Part shown: one piece after another, positions 9,700 through 60,196 of the stretch
How the letters are laid out: each line of letters starts with the position of its first letter
How positions within the stretch are numbered: the stretch's first letter is position 1
From: an uncultured delta proteobacterium
Lineage (GTDB): Bacteria > Desulfobacterota > RBG-13-43-22
Assembly: GCA_963821645.1 (NCBI GenBank)
Contig: CAWGEQ010000039.1
Coordinates: 5,766-69,765 of the forward strand
DNA length: 64,000 bases
Direction: 5' to 3'
The notes under the pieces: model-generated
The model's input: only the letters and a program-made list of their open reading frames with translations
The model's database searches: none
What the model was told of the DNA's origin: nothing
Translations under genes and position numbers: made by a program

Positions 9700-9806
9700 C
9701 TGTTATGCGTAAAATACCCTTGACAAAGGGCTTAATTGATATAAACTTTAAATTAACCCTCGCCTATATTGCTTGAATATAATCCGATTTGCGGCGAAGT
9801 AGTTTT

Positions 9807-9934
9807 CATCCGGAAATTCAAGATTTCCGGATAGCTTTCAGCAGTTAGCCCAACTCTCCAATGATAAAAGGTTTTGCTGAAAGCTAAAAGCTGATGGCTT
9901 AATGCTCCATCCGGAAGAGGGTCGTTTCCGGATG
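9807..9934. repeat. tccggaaa-hairpin / TCAGCTN-heptamer element (R1)
   Basis: Hairpin tcatccggaaattcaagatttccggata, left arm ctttcagcagttagc, right arm gctgaaagctaaaagctgatggc, second hairpin catccggaagagggtcgtttccggatgg. Same family as 10563-10706, 13448-13599 and 60078-60196. Confidence 0.7.
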
Positions 9935-9959
9935 GATACTATTTACAAAGGAGGCCCAA

Positions 9960-10274
9960 ATGTCTAAAGAAAAAGAAATACGATGTTATGGGTTTCAAAC
10001 TTCTTCTGGGAGATGGCAAGGAGTATGCCTTGATTTTAACTTGGCCGCCGAAGCCGATACCATAGATCAGCTAAAGAGTAAAATGGGTGATATTATAAAA
10101 AGTTATATTGAAAGCGTTCTGGATACACCCGATAAATCCTCCATTATTGCCCTATTAAACCGTAAGGCTCCTTTCAAGAATTGGGTTCTTTATTATTTAA
10201 TAAAATCAATTATATTTATAAAAGAGATCCGCACCATAAGTACTTTTCAAAACACGGCCGATGTCCCGTTATAG
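9960..10274 (+). CDS. HicB-like antitoxin
   Basis: 104 aa. N-terminal HicB-like pattern (RWQGVCLDFNLAAEADTIDQLKSKMGDIIKSYIESV). Sits directly upstream of a HicA-like gene. RBS aaaggagg. Confidence 0.5.
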   Translation: MSKEKEIRCYGFQTSSGRWQGVCLDFNLAAEADTIDQLKSKMGDIIKSYIESVLDTPDKSSIIALLNRKAPFKNWVLYYLIKSIIFIKEIRTISTFQNTADVPL

Positions 10275-10280
10275 GTTCCG

Positions 10281-10526
10281 ATGGGGGGTCAATATCCACC
10301 ATTAGACCGCGAACAAGTAGAAAATATTCTTAAAAAGCTTAATTTCTCTCTAAAAAGGCAAAAATCCACCAGTCATGCTCAATGGGAGGGGTATATCAGA
10401 GGAGAGCGCCGGATCGTAACAGTTGATATAGAGAAAAGCAAAAAAGAAAAATATGGACGGTTTCTTCTCAATAAAATGATTCAGCAATCAGGTCTTTCCA
10501 AAAAAGAATTTTATTCATACCTCTAA
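10281..10526 (+). CDS. HicA-like mRNA interferase toxin
   Basis: 81 aa. YcfA/HicA-like pattern (ILKKLNFSLKRQKSTSHAQWEG...RIVTVD...LLNKMIQQSGLSKKEF). Confidence 0.6.
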   Translation: MGGQYPPLDREQVENILKKLNFSLKRQKSTSHAQWEGYIRGERRIVTVDIEKSKKEKYGRFLLNKMIQQSGLSKKEFYSYL

Positions 10527-10562
10527 GATTTTATGGACCTGGGCAGACTTGGTTCCAACTTT

Positions 10563-10706
10563 TCATCCGGAAATCCAAGATTTCCGGATAGCTTTCAGCA
10601 GTCAGCGCTCAGCATTTAGCCCAACTTCCCAATGATAAAGCATTTTGCTGAAAGCTAAGAGCTGATGGCTTCATGCTTCATCCGGAAGAGGGTCGTTTCC
10701 GGATGG
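10563..10706. repeat. tccggaaa-hairpin / TCAGCTN-heptamer element (R2)
   Basis: Near copy of 9807-9934 with extra heptamer units (gtcagcgctcagca). Confidence 0.7.
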
Positions 10707-10730
10707 ATACTATTTACAAAGGAGGCCCAA

Positions 10731-10951
10731 ATGTCTAAAGAAAAAGAAATACGATGTTATGGGTTTCGAACTTCTTCTGGGAGATGACAAGGAGTATGCC
10801 TTGATTTTAACTTGGCCGCCGAAGCTGATACTATAGATCAGCTAAAAGAGTAAAATGGGTGATATTATAAAAAGTTATATTGAAAGCGTTCTGGATACAC
10901 CCGATAAATCCACCATTATTGGCCTATTGAACCGTAAGGCTCCTTTCAGAA
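10731..10951 (+). pseudogene. decayed duplicate of the hicB-like gene
   Basis: Same first ~220 nt as 9960.., but with TGG to TGA (gggagatgacaagg) and a 1-nt insertion (gctaaaagagtaaaatg). Homology stops near 10951. Confidence 0.7.
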
Positions 10952-11086
10952 ATTTTGACTCCCGACCCTGGGAGTCAAAAAATTCCGCCTCCGATTTGTC
11001 GGGGTCTGGGATCTGACTCGGGGAGGGCATCGCCCGAGGGCAAAGAACATTCCGTCTTTATCAAGGTAGGCGGTGAGAGGCCGTGT

Positions 11087-11347
11087 TTACCTCCCCAACA
11101 CTTCCTTGTGGGTCCCTATAGCCGTAATGACCAGACCCCCCTCCGTTCTGAGATAGGTTGCCCGATAGTTCATGGTAATGGTGAAAGCCCAATGGGGAGT
11201 GCCTTTCAATTTTTCATTTCTCAAACCTGGGTAGGATGGGTCGGCTATAAGTTTTTCCAATTGGTCCCAGAATTTCAAGCGCACTTCCTTCGGCAGGTCG
11301 TTTAAAATTTTTATAATATTTTCCGGAATGATGATATTAGTCGCCAA
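11087..11347 (-). CDS. RelE/ParE-superfamily toxin
   Basis: 86 aa. Pattern ...GLRNEKLKGTPHWAFTITMNYRATY...ITAIGTHKEV. Overlaps the upstream antitoxin gene by 11 nt. Confidence 0.65.
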   Translation of the reverse strand: MATNIIIPENIIKILNDLPKEVRLKFWDQLEKLIADPSYPGLRNEKLKGTPHWAFTITMNYRATYLRTEGGLVITAIGTHKEVLGR

Positions 11348-11618
11348 AATGTTCGCGGCCTTCTTTTACCGAGCCAAATACCTTGACTTTTCCCTCTTTT
11401 AAGTTGTTTATTGAGGATTGAATCTCTGTTTGCCATTCCGGGCTCCAAAACAACGACTGGCCCCGGGGAACCTCGACCACCGGCCGGATAACGATCTCAT
11501 ATTCGCCAGCGATAACCTCGACCCGTTCCCCAACCTTTAAAGGAATTTTTTTTCGGACCTGTTCTGGAATGGTAACCTGGTATTTCTCCCTTACTTTAAC
11601 GGTAACTCCCATAATCAT
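11337..11618 (-). CDS. AbrB/MazE/SpoVT-family antitoxin
   Basis: 93 aa. N-terminal swapped-hairpin motif (YQVTIPEQVRKKIPLKVGERVEV). Confidence 0.7.
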   Translation of the reverse strand: MIMGVTVKVREKYQVTIPEQVRKKIPLKVGERVEVIAGEYEIVIRPVVEVPRGQSLFWSPEWQTEIQSSINNLKEGKVKVFGSVKEGREHFGD

Positions 11619-12020: not shown

Positions 12021-13431
12021 TTATAAATAATCATTAACAATGCCCACCAAATCATAGGGGTGGGCCTCAATAATCTTGACTTGTACTATCTCCCCGATCT
12101 TCGGTTCCCCATCGGTAATATAGACCACTCCATCCACCTCCGGGGCCTGAAAACGGGTCCGGCCTTGAATCAATAACTCGCTTTCCGGACTGATCCCGCT
12201 TACCAGGACCGGCTCCAGAGAACCGATCCGGTTTTCATTCTTCTTAAGAGAAATTTTCTTCTGGGTCTCCATTAAGAGATCCAGCCGGGCCTTACCGATT
12301 TCTTCCGGCACCTGGTCCGCATAGCCGGCAGCCGGGGTGCCTTCTTCCCGGGAATATCTGAAAACTCCGAGATGATCGAACCCCGTCTCGGAAACAAAAT
12401 CAACCAGCTCCTGAAAATCTTCTTCTGTTTCCCCGGGAAAGCCCACCATGACCGTGGTCCGAAGGGCCGCTTGCGGGAGTGTGCGACGAATTTTTTGGAT
12501 CAAGTCCCTCAAGGCTTTTTGCCCGTAGGGCCGATTCATGGCCTTAAGAATCCGGTCGCTGATATGTTGTATGGGGATGTCTAAATAAGGACAGATCTTT
12601 TCCTCTTGGGCCATCAAGGCTAAAAGGTCCGGGGTAATCCTTTCCGGCCGCAAATAAAGCAGGCGCAGCCATTGAAGGGACTCTATCTTTAACAATTCAA
12701 CAATCAACTCGTTCAAAGAAAGCGGCTGAACAAGATCGGACCCGTAAGCCGTCGTATCCTGGGCGATCAGGATGAGTTCACGGACCCCCTGCCCTGCCAG
12801 GATCTGCGCTTCCTGAATCAGCACCTTTGGGTCGCGGCTGCGGAAGGGTCCCCGGATAGAAGGGATTGTGCAGTAGGCACAGCGATTGGAACACCCCTCG
12901 GCGATCTTCAAATAAGCCGTTCCCGGAGAGGTGGTCAGGAGACGGCCATGCGGTTCTGCCCACAGTCCGGGAACAGGATCCAAAATCATTTTATGCGTTT
13001 TTCTCCCGGCCAGAAGGGCGGATACCTGATCGGCCACGGTCAAAAAAGATTCCGTGCCCAGGAAGAGATCCACTTCGGGTAATTGATCTATCAACTCAAT
13101 TCCCATATCTTTGTGGAAAACACCCGGTGACCACCAGGATCTGACAGGCCCCTTCCTCCTTTAATCGGGCCGCCTCTAAAATAGTGTCGATGCTTTCCTG
13201 GGTGGCGGATTCGATAAAGCTGCAAGTATTGATCAGGATCACTTCAGCCTTATCAGGGTCCTGAGTCAAAGAAAAACCCTTGGCCTCCAATTGATGGAGC
13301 ATGATCTCGCTGTCCACCTGATTCTTGGCACAGCCGAGGCTGATGAAATAGATCTTGGGAAAAGAAGGGGTCGAGGGGTCCAGGATTCGAGGATTCGAGG
13401 GTTTCGTTTTTGGGTTTGATTTGCTTTTCAT
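12021..13431 (-). pseudogene. rimO: ribosomal protein S12 methylthiotransferase RimO, one frameshift near 13100 (or sequencing error)
   Basis: ORFs 13096..13431 (ISLGCAKNQVDSE, VVTGCFPQRYG) and 12021..13106 (radical-SAM CSNRCAYCTIPSIRGPFRSR, C-terminal TRAM) lie in different frames. Confidence 0.85.
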
Positions 13432-13447
13432 TTGACTCCTTAGTTCA

Positions 13448-13599
13448 TGTCCATCCGGAAACAGTATCTTTCCGGATGGAGCGGTCAGCTATCAGCTGTT
13501 AGCTTTCAGCAAAATCTTTTACATTAATGAGTTAGCTGAATGCTGATCGCTGACTGCTAAAAGCTTCATCCGGGAATTTTGGATTTCCGGATGAGAATA
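13448..13599. mobile_element. MITE-like copy (R3) of the tccggaaa/TCAGCTN element inserted in the rimO leader
   Basis: 152 bp between TTCA (13444-13447) and TTCA (13600-13603). The paralogous leader at 15401-15420 has a single TTCA and no insert. Confidence 0.6.
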
Positions 13600-13663
13600 T
13601 TCACCAGACACCGAGAACACCGAGCAGAATCTTGTTTTATGAAGAAACGGGAGCCCCGTTTCT

Positions 13664-13846
13664 TCATGAGCGTATGGAACCATTGGGTTGTTTAAGCTCT
13701 ACGTTCCGGCAAACCTCAATATAAACAACCGATGGGCTTACCTTATCCACTGCGGTTATTACCGCCGTGGAATAGGCGTCCAGCAGGTCCTCGTCGGAAG
13801 GGACCGGTCTGCCTTGCGTCTCGAGTCTGCATGCCAAATCTTTCAT
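13664..13846 (-). pseudogene. N-terminal fragment of an HtrA/DegP-like serine protease
   Basis: 60 aa, DEDLLDAYSTAVITAVDKVSPSVVYIEV matches the region preceding the trypsin-like domain and then stops. A 14-bp hairpin follows (13639-13669). Confidence 0.4.
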
Positions 13847-14062
13847 CGGATACTAATCTAAGAACCTTTTTCATTACTTTCTCCTGCAAGGTGCCGTATT
13901 CGAAATATTTAAATCTAATCATCCCAAGGGAGTTTTGCAACCGCAAACGATGAGGGATTAAGGCGGGTGGTCCACCTAACAATTTGAGGATGTTTATAAA
14001 AAAGGGCTGGCCGGAAGTTTTGTCCCCGGATTCAAAAACCGCATGGAGAACATTTGACCGCT

Positions 14063-14188
14063 AATTCGCCACGGTGCTGAAGGTCATACGGGTCCTCGGC
14101 TTGCGCCTGCACGCAACAACGGCACATTCATAACCTTCATCCCGGAAAGATAGCTCACCTGGGCGGATGGGCGGTTCCTAATATTCCC
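14063..14188. repeat. ~126-bp direct repeat, left copy, flanking higBA
   Basis: Aligns with 15042-15168 (aattcgcc..gtgctgaaggtcatacg...gcacgcaacaacggcacatt.ataaccttcatcccgg...ggcggatgg.cggttcc.aatatt). Internal dyad tgaaggtcat / ataaccttca. Confidence 0.7.
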
Positions 14189-14228
14189 CCAACTTATATT
14201 GTGTACCCGGAAAATCGTAATTTTTTTC

Positions 14229-14258
14229 TTGACAAATCGTAACCCGTGGGGTTACATT
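14229..14258 (+). promoter_or_regulatory. putative higBA promoter with palindromic operator
   Basis: TTGACA 14229-14234. Palindrome gtaacccgtggggttac 14239-14255 overlaps a -10-like tacatt. ATG follows at 14265 (near-leaderless). Confidence 0.45.
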
Positions 14259-14264
14259 TTGATC

Positions 14265-14543
14265 ATGATCAAGTCATTTAAGCATAAAGGTCTTGAGGAT
14301 TTCTTTTATACAGGAAAGAAGAAAGGTATAAAGCCTGAACATGGCGACCGGCTTGAGAGAATTCTTGATAGATTAAATTCCGCCAACGAATTAAAAGATA
14401 TGAATTATCCAGGTTCTCACCTCCACAAGTTGATGGGAGATAAAAAAGAGCACTATGCTGTAAAAGTATCCGGGAACTGGAGGCTTTTTTTTGAGTTCAG
14501 AGGCGGCGATGTCTATCTGGTTGATTACAACGATTATCACTGA
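14265..14543 (+). CDS. higB: HigB-type (RelE/ParE family) toxin
   Basis: MIKSFKHKGLEDFFYTGKKKGIKPEHGDRLERILDRL...NWRLFFEF..GDVYLVDYNDYH is the typical proteic-killer pattern. The internal ATG of ORF 14199..14543 is chosen as start. Confidence 0.8.
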   Translation: MIKSFKHKGLEDFFYTGKKKGIKPEHGDRLERILDRLNSANELKDMNYPGSHLHKLMGDKKEHYAVKVSGNWRLFFEFRGGDVYLVDYNDYH

Positions 14544-14554
14544 GAGGTAAGAGC

Positions 14555-14869
14555 ATGAGAAAAATCGGAAGAAAACCAACCCACCCTGGGAAGATTATAA
14601 AAGAAGATTATTTAAAACCATTATCCCTCACGATCAGCGAATTGGCCTCGACTCTCGGCGTTTCAAGAAAAACGTTATCAAAGATTATTAATGAAAGAGG
14701 CGCTGTTACTCCGGATATGGCACTTCGTTTATCCCGAGCCTTTGAAACGACCCCTGATCTTTGGCTTAATCTACAAAAGAATTACGATTTGTGGCAGGCA
14801 GAGCATACATCGGATGATTGGCAAACGGTAAAACCGCTCTCTCTACAGGTGCTTCATGCTCAGTCATAG
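14555..14869 (+). CDS. higA: HigA-family antitoxin (XRE HTH)
   Basis: HPGKIIKEDYLKPLSLTISELASTLGVSRKTLSKIINERGAVTPDMALRLSRAF. Confidence 0.85.
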   Translation: MRKIGRKPTHPGKIIKEDYLKPLSLTISELASTLGVSRKTLSKIINERGAVTPDMALRLSRAFETTPDLWLNLQKNYDLWQAEHTSDDWQTVKPLSLQVLHAQS

Positions 14870-15041
14870 ACAGGGCCGCAGAGACGGCCCTTGAGGAAGG
14901 AGACCCTGATGCTGTGCTGGCGGGCCGTCGCTTTGAGAAGGATATCAGTCCCGCGCCAAAGGAATGAGCCCGGATAGCTCTGAGACCGGGCTTGGGCGCA
15001 AAAGCCTGCATATAAGCGCCTTGTCTCCGAAGGAAATCCCA

Positions 15042-15168
15042 AATTCGCCCACAGTGCTGAAGGTCATACGAGCTCTGGGCTTAGCGCTTGCACGCAACAA
15101 CGGCACATTGATAACCTTCATCCCGGTAGATCTAATCCCTTTCCGGCGGATGGACGGTTCCAATATTG
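15042..15168. repeat. ~127-bp direct repeat, right copy, flanking higBA
   Basis: See 14063-14188. Confidence 0.7.
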
Positions 15169-15346
15169 CTCCCCAGTCCTTTAACCGGATTGAACTCAGA
15201 CCGACAGTACACAGAAATTTCTAAATGGAATGAAGAACCTCCCCTGGATCACTGGAAATTAATCCTGACAAATTTCGGCCCTACTCCCAAATTGGTCAAA
15301 TTGTCCCCTAATTGTCAATATAAAAGATTTGATCCCAATTACTTCG

Positions 15347-15445
15347 GAGGGGTCGAGGATTCGAGGGTTTCGATTTTGGGTTTGATTTGCTTTTCATTTG
15401 ACTCCTTGGTTCACCACGAGACACCGAGGACACCGAGTAAAATCC
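15347..15445 (-). repeat. duplicate of the rimO RBS plus first ~17 codons and the CACNGAG repeat
   Basis: Reverse complement reads gattttactcggtgtcctcggtgtctcgtggtgaaccaaggagtcaaatgaaaagcaaatcaaacccaaaatcgaaaccctcgaatcctcg. Matches 13365-13443 plus 13600-13630. Confidence 0.75.
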
Positions 15446-32338: not shown

Positions 32339-32521
32339 GAAACGGGTACCGCCCCGTAGGGGTGGGAGTAAGCCGCGATGTGGGCGAAAAAAGGCCCATC
32401 TATTGCGTTCCCCTCACCCCTCGTCATTGCGGCGTACTTCTATGTACGCCTCATTCCTCGGGATTTCTTCGCATCGAGGGCGCTGCTCAGTCCCACCCCT
32501 TCGGGGCGGGTTCCCGGTTTC
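32339..32521. mobile_element. ~183-bp TIR-bounded structured insertion between antitoxin and toxin genes
   Basis: Left end gaaacgggtaccgccccgtaggggtgggagt. Reverse complement of right end is gaaaccgggaacccgccccgaaggggtgggact. Internal hairpins ggcgtac-ttctat-gtacgcc and cctcg..cgagg. Confidence 0.45.
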
Positions 32522-34608: not shown

Positions 34609-34616
34609 GTTCCATG

Positions 34617-34716
34617 AAGCGGTCAGCCGTCAGCTTTTAGCTTTCAGCGAACCCCGCCACCATTACATGAAATTGATTTTCGGCGAACGTTGAACGTTAA
34701 AGAACCTTGAACGGTA
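34617..34716. repeat. hybrid spacer: TCAGCTN-type units followed by GAACGTT/GAACCTT units
   Basis: gcggtcagccgtcagcttttagctttcagcg ... gaacgttgaacgttaaagaaccttgaacgg. Confidence 0.5.
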
Positions 34717-60077: not shown

Positions 60078-60196
60078 CCGCATCCGGAAATTCAAGATTT
60101 CCGGATGCGGCGTTCAGCGTATGGCGTCGCGTTTAACCAAATCGATTTTTACAGGAGTTTTGCCGAAAGCTGAAAGCTGATCACTGATTGCTCCAT
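60078..60196. repeat. tccggaaa-hairpin / GCTGAAA element (R7), truncated at the right end
   Basis: Perfect 13-bp hairpin ccgcatccggaaa-ttcaaga-tttccggatgcgg (60078-60110) right after the peptidase stop, then gccgaaagctgaaagctgatcactgattgc. Confidence 0.7.

Follow-up and report, generated by a model that had tools for sequence, protein, structure and literature searches.

Bacterial MITEs such as Correia of Neisseria, Chunjie of Geobacter and Nezha of cyanobacteria occur in tens of copies, with members that vary in length or are truncated (PMC10969869), and among insertion sequences (ISs) ISRm17 has been placed in the ISDol1 group of ISNCY (PMC10194956). We analyzed a window of 64,000 nucleotides (G000:C39:5766-69765) from a Thermodesulfobacteriota lineage, in which the leader of rimO carries a repeat of this general kind. 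Like Correia, Chunjie and Nezha, the repeat is small, non-coding and intergenic and has terminal inverted repeats and target duplications; unlike them, it has ends that are complete palindromes, apparently mobile alone, and a body that is an unrelated heptamer-repeat hairpin cargo rather than a deleted IS interior. The body resembles the heptamer repeats of Xanthomonas and Nostoc (PMC4692102) in being an inverted degenerate 7-nt array that varies in steps of 7, but it differs from plain heptamer-repeat hairpins in that the hairpin is carried between transposon ends. Judged by sequence comparison, the insert is very probably a non-autonomous transposon (MITE) mobilized in trans by a DDE transposase, that of an IS of the ISDol1 group of the ISNCY family.

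The window belongs to a 3.03-Mb assembly (G000) of 53 contigs, with 50.8% G+C and 76% completeness. The rimO gene lies at 12021-13431 on the minus strand and encodes UPF0004, radical SAM and TRAM domains. It is read in two frames, with one extra C near 13102 (AATTCCCATA versus AATT-CCATA in G009, the closest sister genome; the open frame of relatives is ~495-505 aa), which may reflect a genuine frameshift or an error of assembly. In several sister species (L013 and L015-L017), the rimO start codon lies within a GGATTCRAGG / CCTTGAATCC repeat hairpin, so that part of the RimO N-terminal extension is encoded by heptamer-type repeats in these species.

Upstream of rimO, the MITE lies 5 nt from the ribosome-binding site. 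Reading of 13436-13616 gave actccttagTTCA, 152 nt and TTCAccagacaccgag, the arrangement given in the preliminary description, and 15401-15428 read actccttggTTCAccacgagacaccgag, with a single TTCA and no insert, again as described there. The insert had been placed at 13448-13599. Its length of 152 nt held, and alignment with the family and the parent IS shifted both bounds one base leftward, to 13447-13598 (plus strand; nhmmer E = 7.6e-43, model positions 2-151). Terminal hairpins and inverted heptamer arms were seen as previously outlined, with a CATCCGGAAA-loop-TTTCCGGATG hairpin at both ends and inverted TCAGCYN heptamer arrays between them. On the plus strand, the left terminal palindrome, one mini-MITE unit that is known alone elsewhere with a 6-bp duplication, spans 13447-13482 (ATGTCCATCCGGAAA, loop, TTTCCGGATGGAG), and the second unit, the right terminal palindrome, spans 13566-13598 (TCATCCGGGAA, loop, TTTCCGGATGAGAAT). 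Between them lie the two arms of the cargo hairpin, the left one (13484-13510) composed of TCAGCYN heptamers and the right one (13534-13565) of the inverted heptamers GCTGANN. The predicted fold of the insert as RNA has an energy of -61.1 kcal/mol (z = -7.95 versus shuffles), and as DNA it consists of three separate hairpins (z = -8.68 versus shuffles).

By BLAST and profile search, we found 13 full-length copies of the family in G000, 137-152 bp long, together with about 10 partial or modular ones. All 13 full-length copies are intergenic, with no spanning ORF, and are often 1-50 bp from a gene end; ribosome-binding sites and stop codons can be only a few bases away. Both ends of the 13 copies, and of the copies in relatives, are 15-16 bp inverted repeats, GT(A/G/T)T(C/T)CATCCGGAAA. 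When the copies were aligned, one end read GT(A/G)TCCATCCGGAAAC and the other the reverse complement of GT(T)T(T/C)CATCCGGAAAT, with the ends G...C just outside the TCC...GGA cores. The suspicion that in other copies the 'ttca' preceding 'tccgg' might be part of the element end proved half right, these bases belonging to the outer inverted repeat (GTTTTCATCC). The terminal bases of the rimO-leader copy are A...T, as opposed to the G...C of most family copies, and the same A...T variant is found in L006. Internal length variation among the copies consists of 7- and 14-nt indels, which are whole heptamers.

Three further repeats in the window, at 9807-9934, 10563-10706 and 60078-60196, had been assigned to one family with the insert. 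Family searches and alignment bore out their membership, and the limits of the first two had to be extended, to 9802-9939 and 10559-10710. Both of these are full-length copies on the minus strand, the first upstream of a hicB-like gene and the second within a tandem duplication of the MITE and a toxin-antitoxin module. This duplication occupies 9802-11400 and comprises the MITE and a hicB-like/hicA module, with the second unit starting identically at 10559. The third relative, at 60081-60196 on the minus strand (model positions 30-147), has one terminal palindrome and the heptamer hairpin and lacks the other palindrome. The cargo also exists alone, as a TCAGCYN heptamer hairpin without terminal palindromes at 34614-34697 on the plus strand (C39:40379-40462; model positions 30-106, E = 3.2e-7). 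A search of 13 other genomes of the genus found the family in every one, and it also occurs in some other families of the phylum; the end motif was present tens to >100 times per genome, compared with 0-6 times for a control pattern. A limited literature search found no description of the element.

The preliminary description had proposed a 4-bp target duplication, TTCA. Collection of the copies and alignment of their termini, as suggested there, yielded a different value for the family, namely a TAnnTA-like duplication of 6 bp that is exact or matches at 5/6 positions in 9 of the 13 full-length G000 copies. The flanks are TATTTA on both sides of the copies on contigs C25, C48 and C23, TAATTA on both sides of those on C15 and C52, TAACTA on C53, TAATTC on C38 and TAGATA on C5, and TAAGTA / TCAGTA (5/6 match) on C27. 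The duplication is absent in the other four, which are the rimO copy, the two copies of the 9802-10710 tandem duplication and the copy on C31. Among the two-hairpin elements in all DNA examined, flanks matching at ≥5/6 positions were found in 28/37, compared with 0/37 in an offset control taken 10 nt further out. The flanks of the rimO copy are TAGTTC and ATTCAC, in which TTCA alone is repeated. The left TTCA lies at 13444-13447, and the right TTCA, at 13600-13603, also forms the opening bases of a CACNGAG-heptamer element (TTCACCAG...).

We investigated the presence or absence of the insertions in G009, in which the RimO N-terminus is 97% identical, by searching for the joined flanks of each G000 copy and then reading the junctions. 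The rimO leader of G009, with ~98% DNA identity, reads ...gactccttagTTCAccacagagacaccgaggacaccgag, continuing ...gactccttagTTCAccacagagacaccgaggacaccgagtaaaatcc..., with a single TTCA and no insert, and the joined flanks matched contiguously across the junction. No MITE was found upstream of rimO in ten further species of the genus. The sites of the copies on C25, C38 and C5 were also empty in G009, each with a single target copy (cATTTA, TAATTC and cAGATA, respectively). At the C53 site there was no insert in diverged sequence, and at the C48 site the MITE was absent and the left flank non-homologous. Two sites, that of window 9802-9939 and that on C31, were filled in both G000 and G009, and the sites of the remaining G000 copies were rearranged or missing in G009. 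The mix of filled and empty sites indicates that insertions of the family are both older and younger than the split of G000 and G009, and the arrival of the rimO copy would postdate the separation from the G009 lineage. For genome evolution, the younger insertions are ones gained after two sister species had separated.

The earlier argument for mobility had compared the filled rimO leader with the empty site at 15401-15428. That site is indeed empty, but it is not a simple paralogous one, as it flanks a 1.97-kb segment that is absent from G009, and being one side of the duplication around this segment it is weak evidence when taken alone. On the sequences compared, the argument is carried instead by the G009 orthologue of the rimO site and the four further empty sites in G009, which make it stronger than the paralogue did. 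Together with the conserved ends, the target duplications and a parent IS, the empty sites bear out the proposal of a MITE-type mobile element.

We also observed that many contig pairs of G000 are 95-99% identical over 2-11 kb (C8/C25, C17/C43, C2/C51, C41/C46, C23/C53, C5/C45 and others), indicating that two or more closely related strains are mixed in the assembly. A different short sequence stands at two MITE sites in the twin contig (C8:12666-12730 and C43:7095-7130). On C8, the twin of the C25 site retains TATTTA twice and the final 11 nt of the element, the body being replaced by 41 nt of unique filler.

The history of the rimO copy itself has to be considered separately from the nature of the family. 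Compared with G009, G000 has 1.97 kb extra, at 13448-15413, between two copies of the rimO start module. The second of these, at 15349-15437 on the far side of the segment, is unoccupied and truncated and consists of the ribosome-binding site, ATG, ~17 codons, TTCA and a CACNGAG arm. The rimO MITE lies at the switch point, with orthology to G009 on its left and non-orthologous sequence on its right, where a different member of the CACNGAG-heptamer element family that starts TTCACCA..., a higBA pair and the truncated rimO start are found. The rimO copy could therefore have arrived as the outermost part of the 1.97-kb segment (13448-15413), by recombination at TTCA or the CACNGAG arm that relied on homology or microhomology, a history that we regard as unlikely but well worth weighing. 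The position of the MITE exactly at the switch and the length of the repeat, only 4 bp, speak for this history, as does TATTCA at 13598-13603, which fits the family target pattern and might be the original right-hand duplication; furthermore, TTCACCA... starts a dispersed heptamer-element family, so that the repeat could be recombination homology. On the other hand, when 13448-13599 and one TTCA are removed, the leader matches G009 through TTCACCA (joined flanks, contiguous over 1-393), and terminal A...T variants with near-matching duplications occur elsewhere (L006), so that a decayed ordinary insertion is possible at rimO. Under either history, the rimO site in G009 reads as empty.

Several features of this region were observed in addition. 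The higB/higA pair, at 14199-14869, is present at other loci in sister genomes, with 93% identity in G005. The start-module copy on the left has chromosome-like sequence to its left and variant sequence to its right, and the opposite holds for the copy on the right. Window 13600-13670 and the loci L290-L295 read TTCACCAC/G..CACCGAG..CACAGAG, followed by a GAAGAAACGGGAG..CCGTTTCTTC hairpin, and the TTCACCAC-type sequence is the start of another dispersed heptamer-array element, with several copies in G001, G008 and G012.

A transposase with matching ends, which the preliminary description had recommended looking for, was found in related genomes and metagenomes by search with the NCBIfam ISNCY model NF033593. 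The parent IS is ~1.69 kb long and encodes a single transposase of 453 aa, in which Pfam identifies DUF772 and DDE_Tnp_1 domains. The ends of the IS are GTTTCCATCCGGAAAC ... CATTTCCGGATGGACAC, with a flanking 6-bp duplication that is usually TAATTA; the MITE agrees with the IS in both its 15-16 bp ends and its 6-bp duplication. The transposase scored 406 bits against NF033593, for which the cut-off is 325 bits. With models of the IS5, IS1182 and IS982 families, the scores were far below the respective cut-offs. The nearest named relatives are genes of the ISRm17/ISMlo5 family, with 49-51% amino acid identity over 98% of the length.

Metagenomes commonly contain intact 453-aa transposases, 82-97% identical, most of them on contigs 1.6-2.1 kb long, and one 97%-identical protein is labelled 'ISNCY family transposase [Desulfomonilaceae bacterium]'. 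In the metagenome contigs L282, L284, L287 and L289, the ~1.69-kb IS has the ends GTTTCCATCCGGAAAC and GTGTCCATCCGGAAAT(G), with TAATTA on both sides. The IS copies in sister genomes are damaged or cut: that in G013 has stops and a nested repeat, that in G009 is cut at a contig end, and those in G002 and G018 are fragments. The G013 element (C140) is ~1.83 kb long, with the left junction TCCTTA|GTTTCCATCCGGAAAC and the right junction CATTTCCGGATGGACAC|TCCTTA. On contig C4 of G009, the IS is cut by the contig start, and its right end abuts a MITE copy via a common TAATTA. Protein and DNA searches of G000 for the parent IS and its transposase gave no match, in keeping with the earlier report that no cognate transposase is visible in the window; because the assembly is only 76% complete, this does not establish that the IS is absent from the genome. 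Since IS copies mostly assemble as lone contigs of 1.6-2.1 kb, binned genomes lack the IS, and in metagenome-assembled genomes MITEs can therefore abound while their parent is lost to short unbinned contigs. We also found that the G013 IS (L265) is interrupted at IS positions ~1503-1656 by another repeat of ~150 bp, which has 77-85% identical copies in G000 (C24:8837-9025 and window ~32389-32466) and is a further small repeat family.

The parent IS resembles the ISDol1 group (ISDol1, ISRm17 and ISMlo5) in exceeding the NF033593 cut-off, in its length of ~1.7 kb and in its single ORF. Elements of this group have 6-7 bp duplications, and the single ISRm17-like copy that we read, with 7 bp, agrees. 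This copy, on S. meliloti pSymA, has the ends GTGCCCGTCCATAAACG and the duplication TAGTCTA. The repeats of the parent IS start with GTG/GTT and resemble those of the ISRm17-like copy (GTGCCCGTCCATAAACG versus GTGTCCATCCGGAAATG); the duplication is 6 bp in the parent IS and 7 bp in the copy examined. A difference from the ISDol1 group is that the window holds a non-autonomous derivative only, in a Thermodesulfobacteriota host that probably belongs to the Desulfomonilaceae, judging only from the label of the 97%-identical protein. We found no description of MITEs of the ISDol1 group in a limited literature search. On the S. meliloti plasmid (L280; CP073679.1, 563-611), the ISRm17-like copy faces a solo end in inverted orientation, with only the 7-bp TAGTCTA between the two tips (GTTTATGGATGGGCAC-TAGTCTA-GTGCCCGTCCATAAAC).

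Other sources of a parent were examined. The end motif was sought at rve (PF00665), DDE_Tnp_1 (PF01609) and Y1_Tnp (PF01797) loci across the 14 genomes of the genus, with no relevant finding, and one candidate, the DDE_Tnp_1 locus L216, was rejected, as the MITE merely adjoins it. Between end pairs 0.7-7 kb apart in G000 and the sister genomes, the intervals contained housekeeping genes (primase, sigma factor and acyl-CoA enzymes). When the ORFs adjoining 118 hairpin-bearing loci in public genomes were clustered, metabolic genes alone recurred.

In the proposed mechanism, the transposase of the parent IS would bind the CATCCGGAAA-containing repeats and cut at the outer G/C; the ends would then be joined to AT-rich, TAnnTA-like target sites that are cut in a 6-bp stagger. 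As a miniature composite transposon, the ~150-bp element would use its outermost repeats. The annotation is settled for a repeat present in tens of copies per genome in a Thermodesulfobacteriota genus, and the repeat is now linked to a named IS group, ISDol1. This is a MITE family of the ordinary kind, now with defined ends, a defined duplication, dated insertions and a parent IS; the general understanding of transposons is unchanged by it. It is possible that the MITE acquired a host function after insertion.

Two other explanations for the family as a whole were weighed against transposition by the ISDol1-group IS. The repeats might be a structured RNA or regulatory hairpin (a terminator, an sRNA or an RNase III site) that spread by duplication and selection. 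The very stable predicted fold and the copies adjoining gene starts and stops would suit such a role, but a search of Rfam with the element gave no match, and the promoter and terminator scan gave no promoter-like site and a single terminator-like site, which is within shuffled expectation (mean 1.2). The precise empty sites with one target copy in sister genomes and the ends held in common with an IS also contradict a structured RNA, which we therefore consider very improbable. Hardly credible, finally, is the reading of the hairpins as REP-like palindromes and of the 150-bp unit as a REPIN moved by a RAYT (Y1/HUH) transposase: the family does have two inverted palindromes around a spacer that fold as one long hairpin, does occur as singlets and tandem arrays (e.g., L164) and does share its genus with many Y1_Tnp genes, but unlike REPINs it has variable 6-bp target duplications, which the IS200/IS605-RAYT type Y1/HUH mechanism does not make, a DDE-type IS with identical ends and no linked Y1 transposase, the hairpin being near 0/30 of the Y1_Tnp loci of the genus examined.

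Within the preferred reading, a MITE of the ISDol1-group IS, two features alone go beyond a routine MITE: palindromes that consist of ends only, and a composite build. A complete palindrome of 35-38 bp forms each MITE end and consists of a left repeat, a loop of 5-8 nt and a right repeat. We found that this palindrome (GTTYTCATCCGGAAA, loop, TTTCCGGATGARAAC) also occurs alone with its own 6-bp duplication in G011, in G001 and in public Thermodesulfobacteriota assemblies. In 12 cases the flanks of a solo palindrome matched at ≥5/6 positions, for example in L147 (TAAAGA) and L155 (GAGTTA). G000 has one at C43:72146-72182 with the duplication TAACTA, and the matching intergenic region of G009 is too diverged to tell empty from filled. 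Given these solo occurrences, the ~150-bp element would, from its anatomy, be a composite in which two ends-only mini-elements surround a heptamer-repeat hairpin cargo.

Palindrome pairs were found to bracket other sequences as well, with the duplication outside the pair, in L148 (GAATTA), L150 (TAGACG), L151 (TAACTA), L158 and L160 (TAATTA) and L166 (TAGATA). At least two large groups, unrelated to each other, can be distinguished among the bracketed sequences, and the TCAGCYN heptamer hairpin is one of them. Ends-only palindromes would thus be able to bracket and move other hairpin modules. We tentatively propose, as a reading that is quite possible though short of probable, that the real mobile unit is the 35-38 bp palindrome, with two transposase-binding ends back to back, and that pairs of it act as miniature composite transposons picking up and spreading unrelated hairpin cargo, including the heptamer-repeat hairpins with which intergenic spacers of the genus are filled. 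To our knowledge, a mobile palindrome of 35-38 bp would be smaller than any described prokaryotic MITE. If the proposal is true, palindrome pairs would provide a concrete means by which heptamer-repeat hairpins, whose spread is unexplained, have been dispersed at least in part. In L164 (G001:C181:12070-12330), three palindromic mini-elements stand in tandem with GGGTTA after each, an arrangement that suggests either repeated use of one target or tandem duplication.
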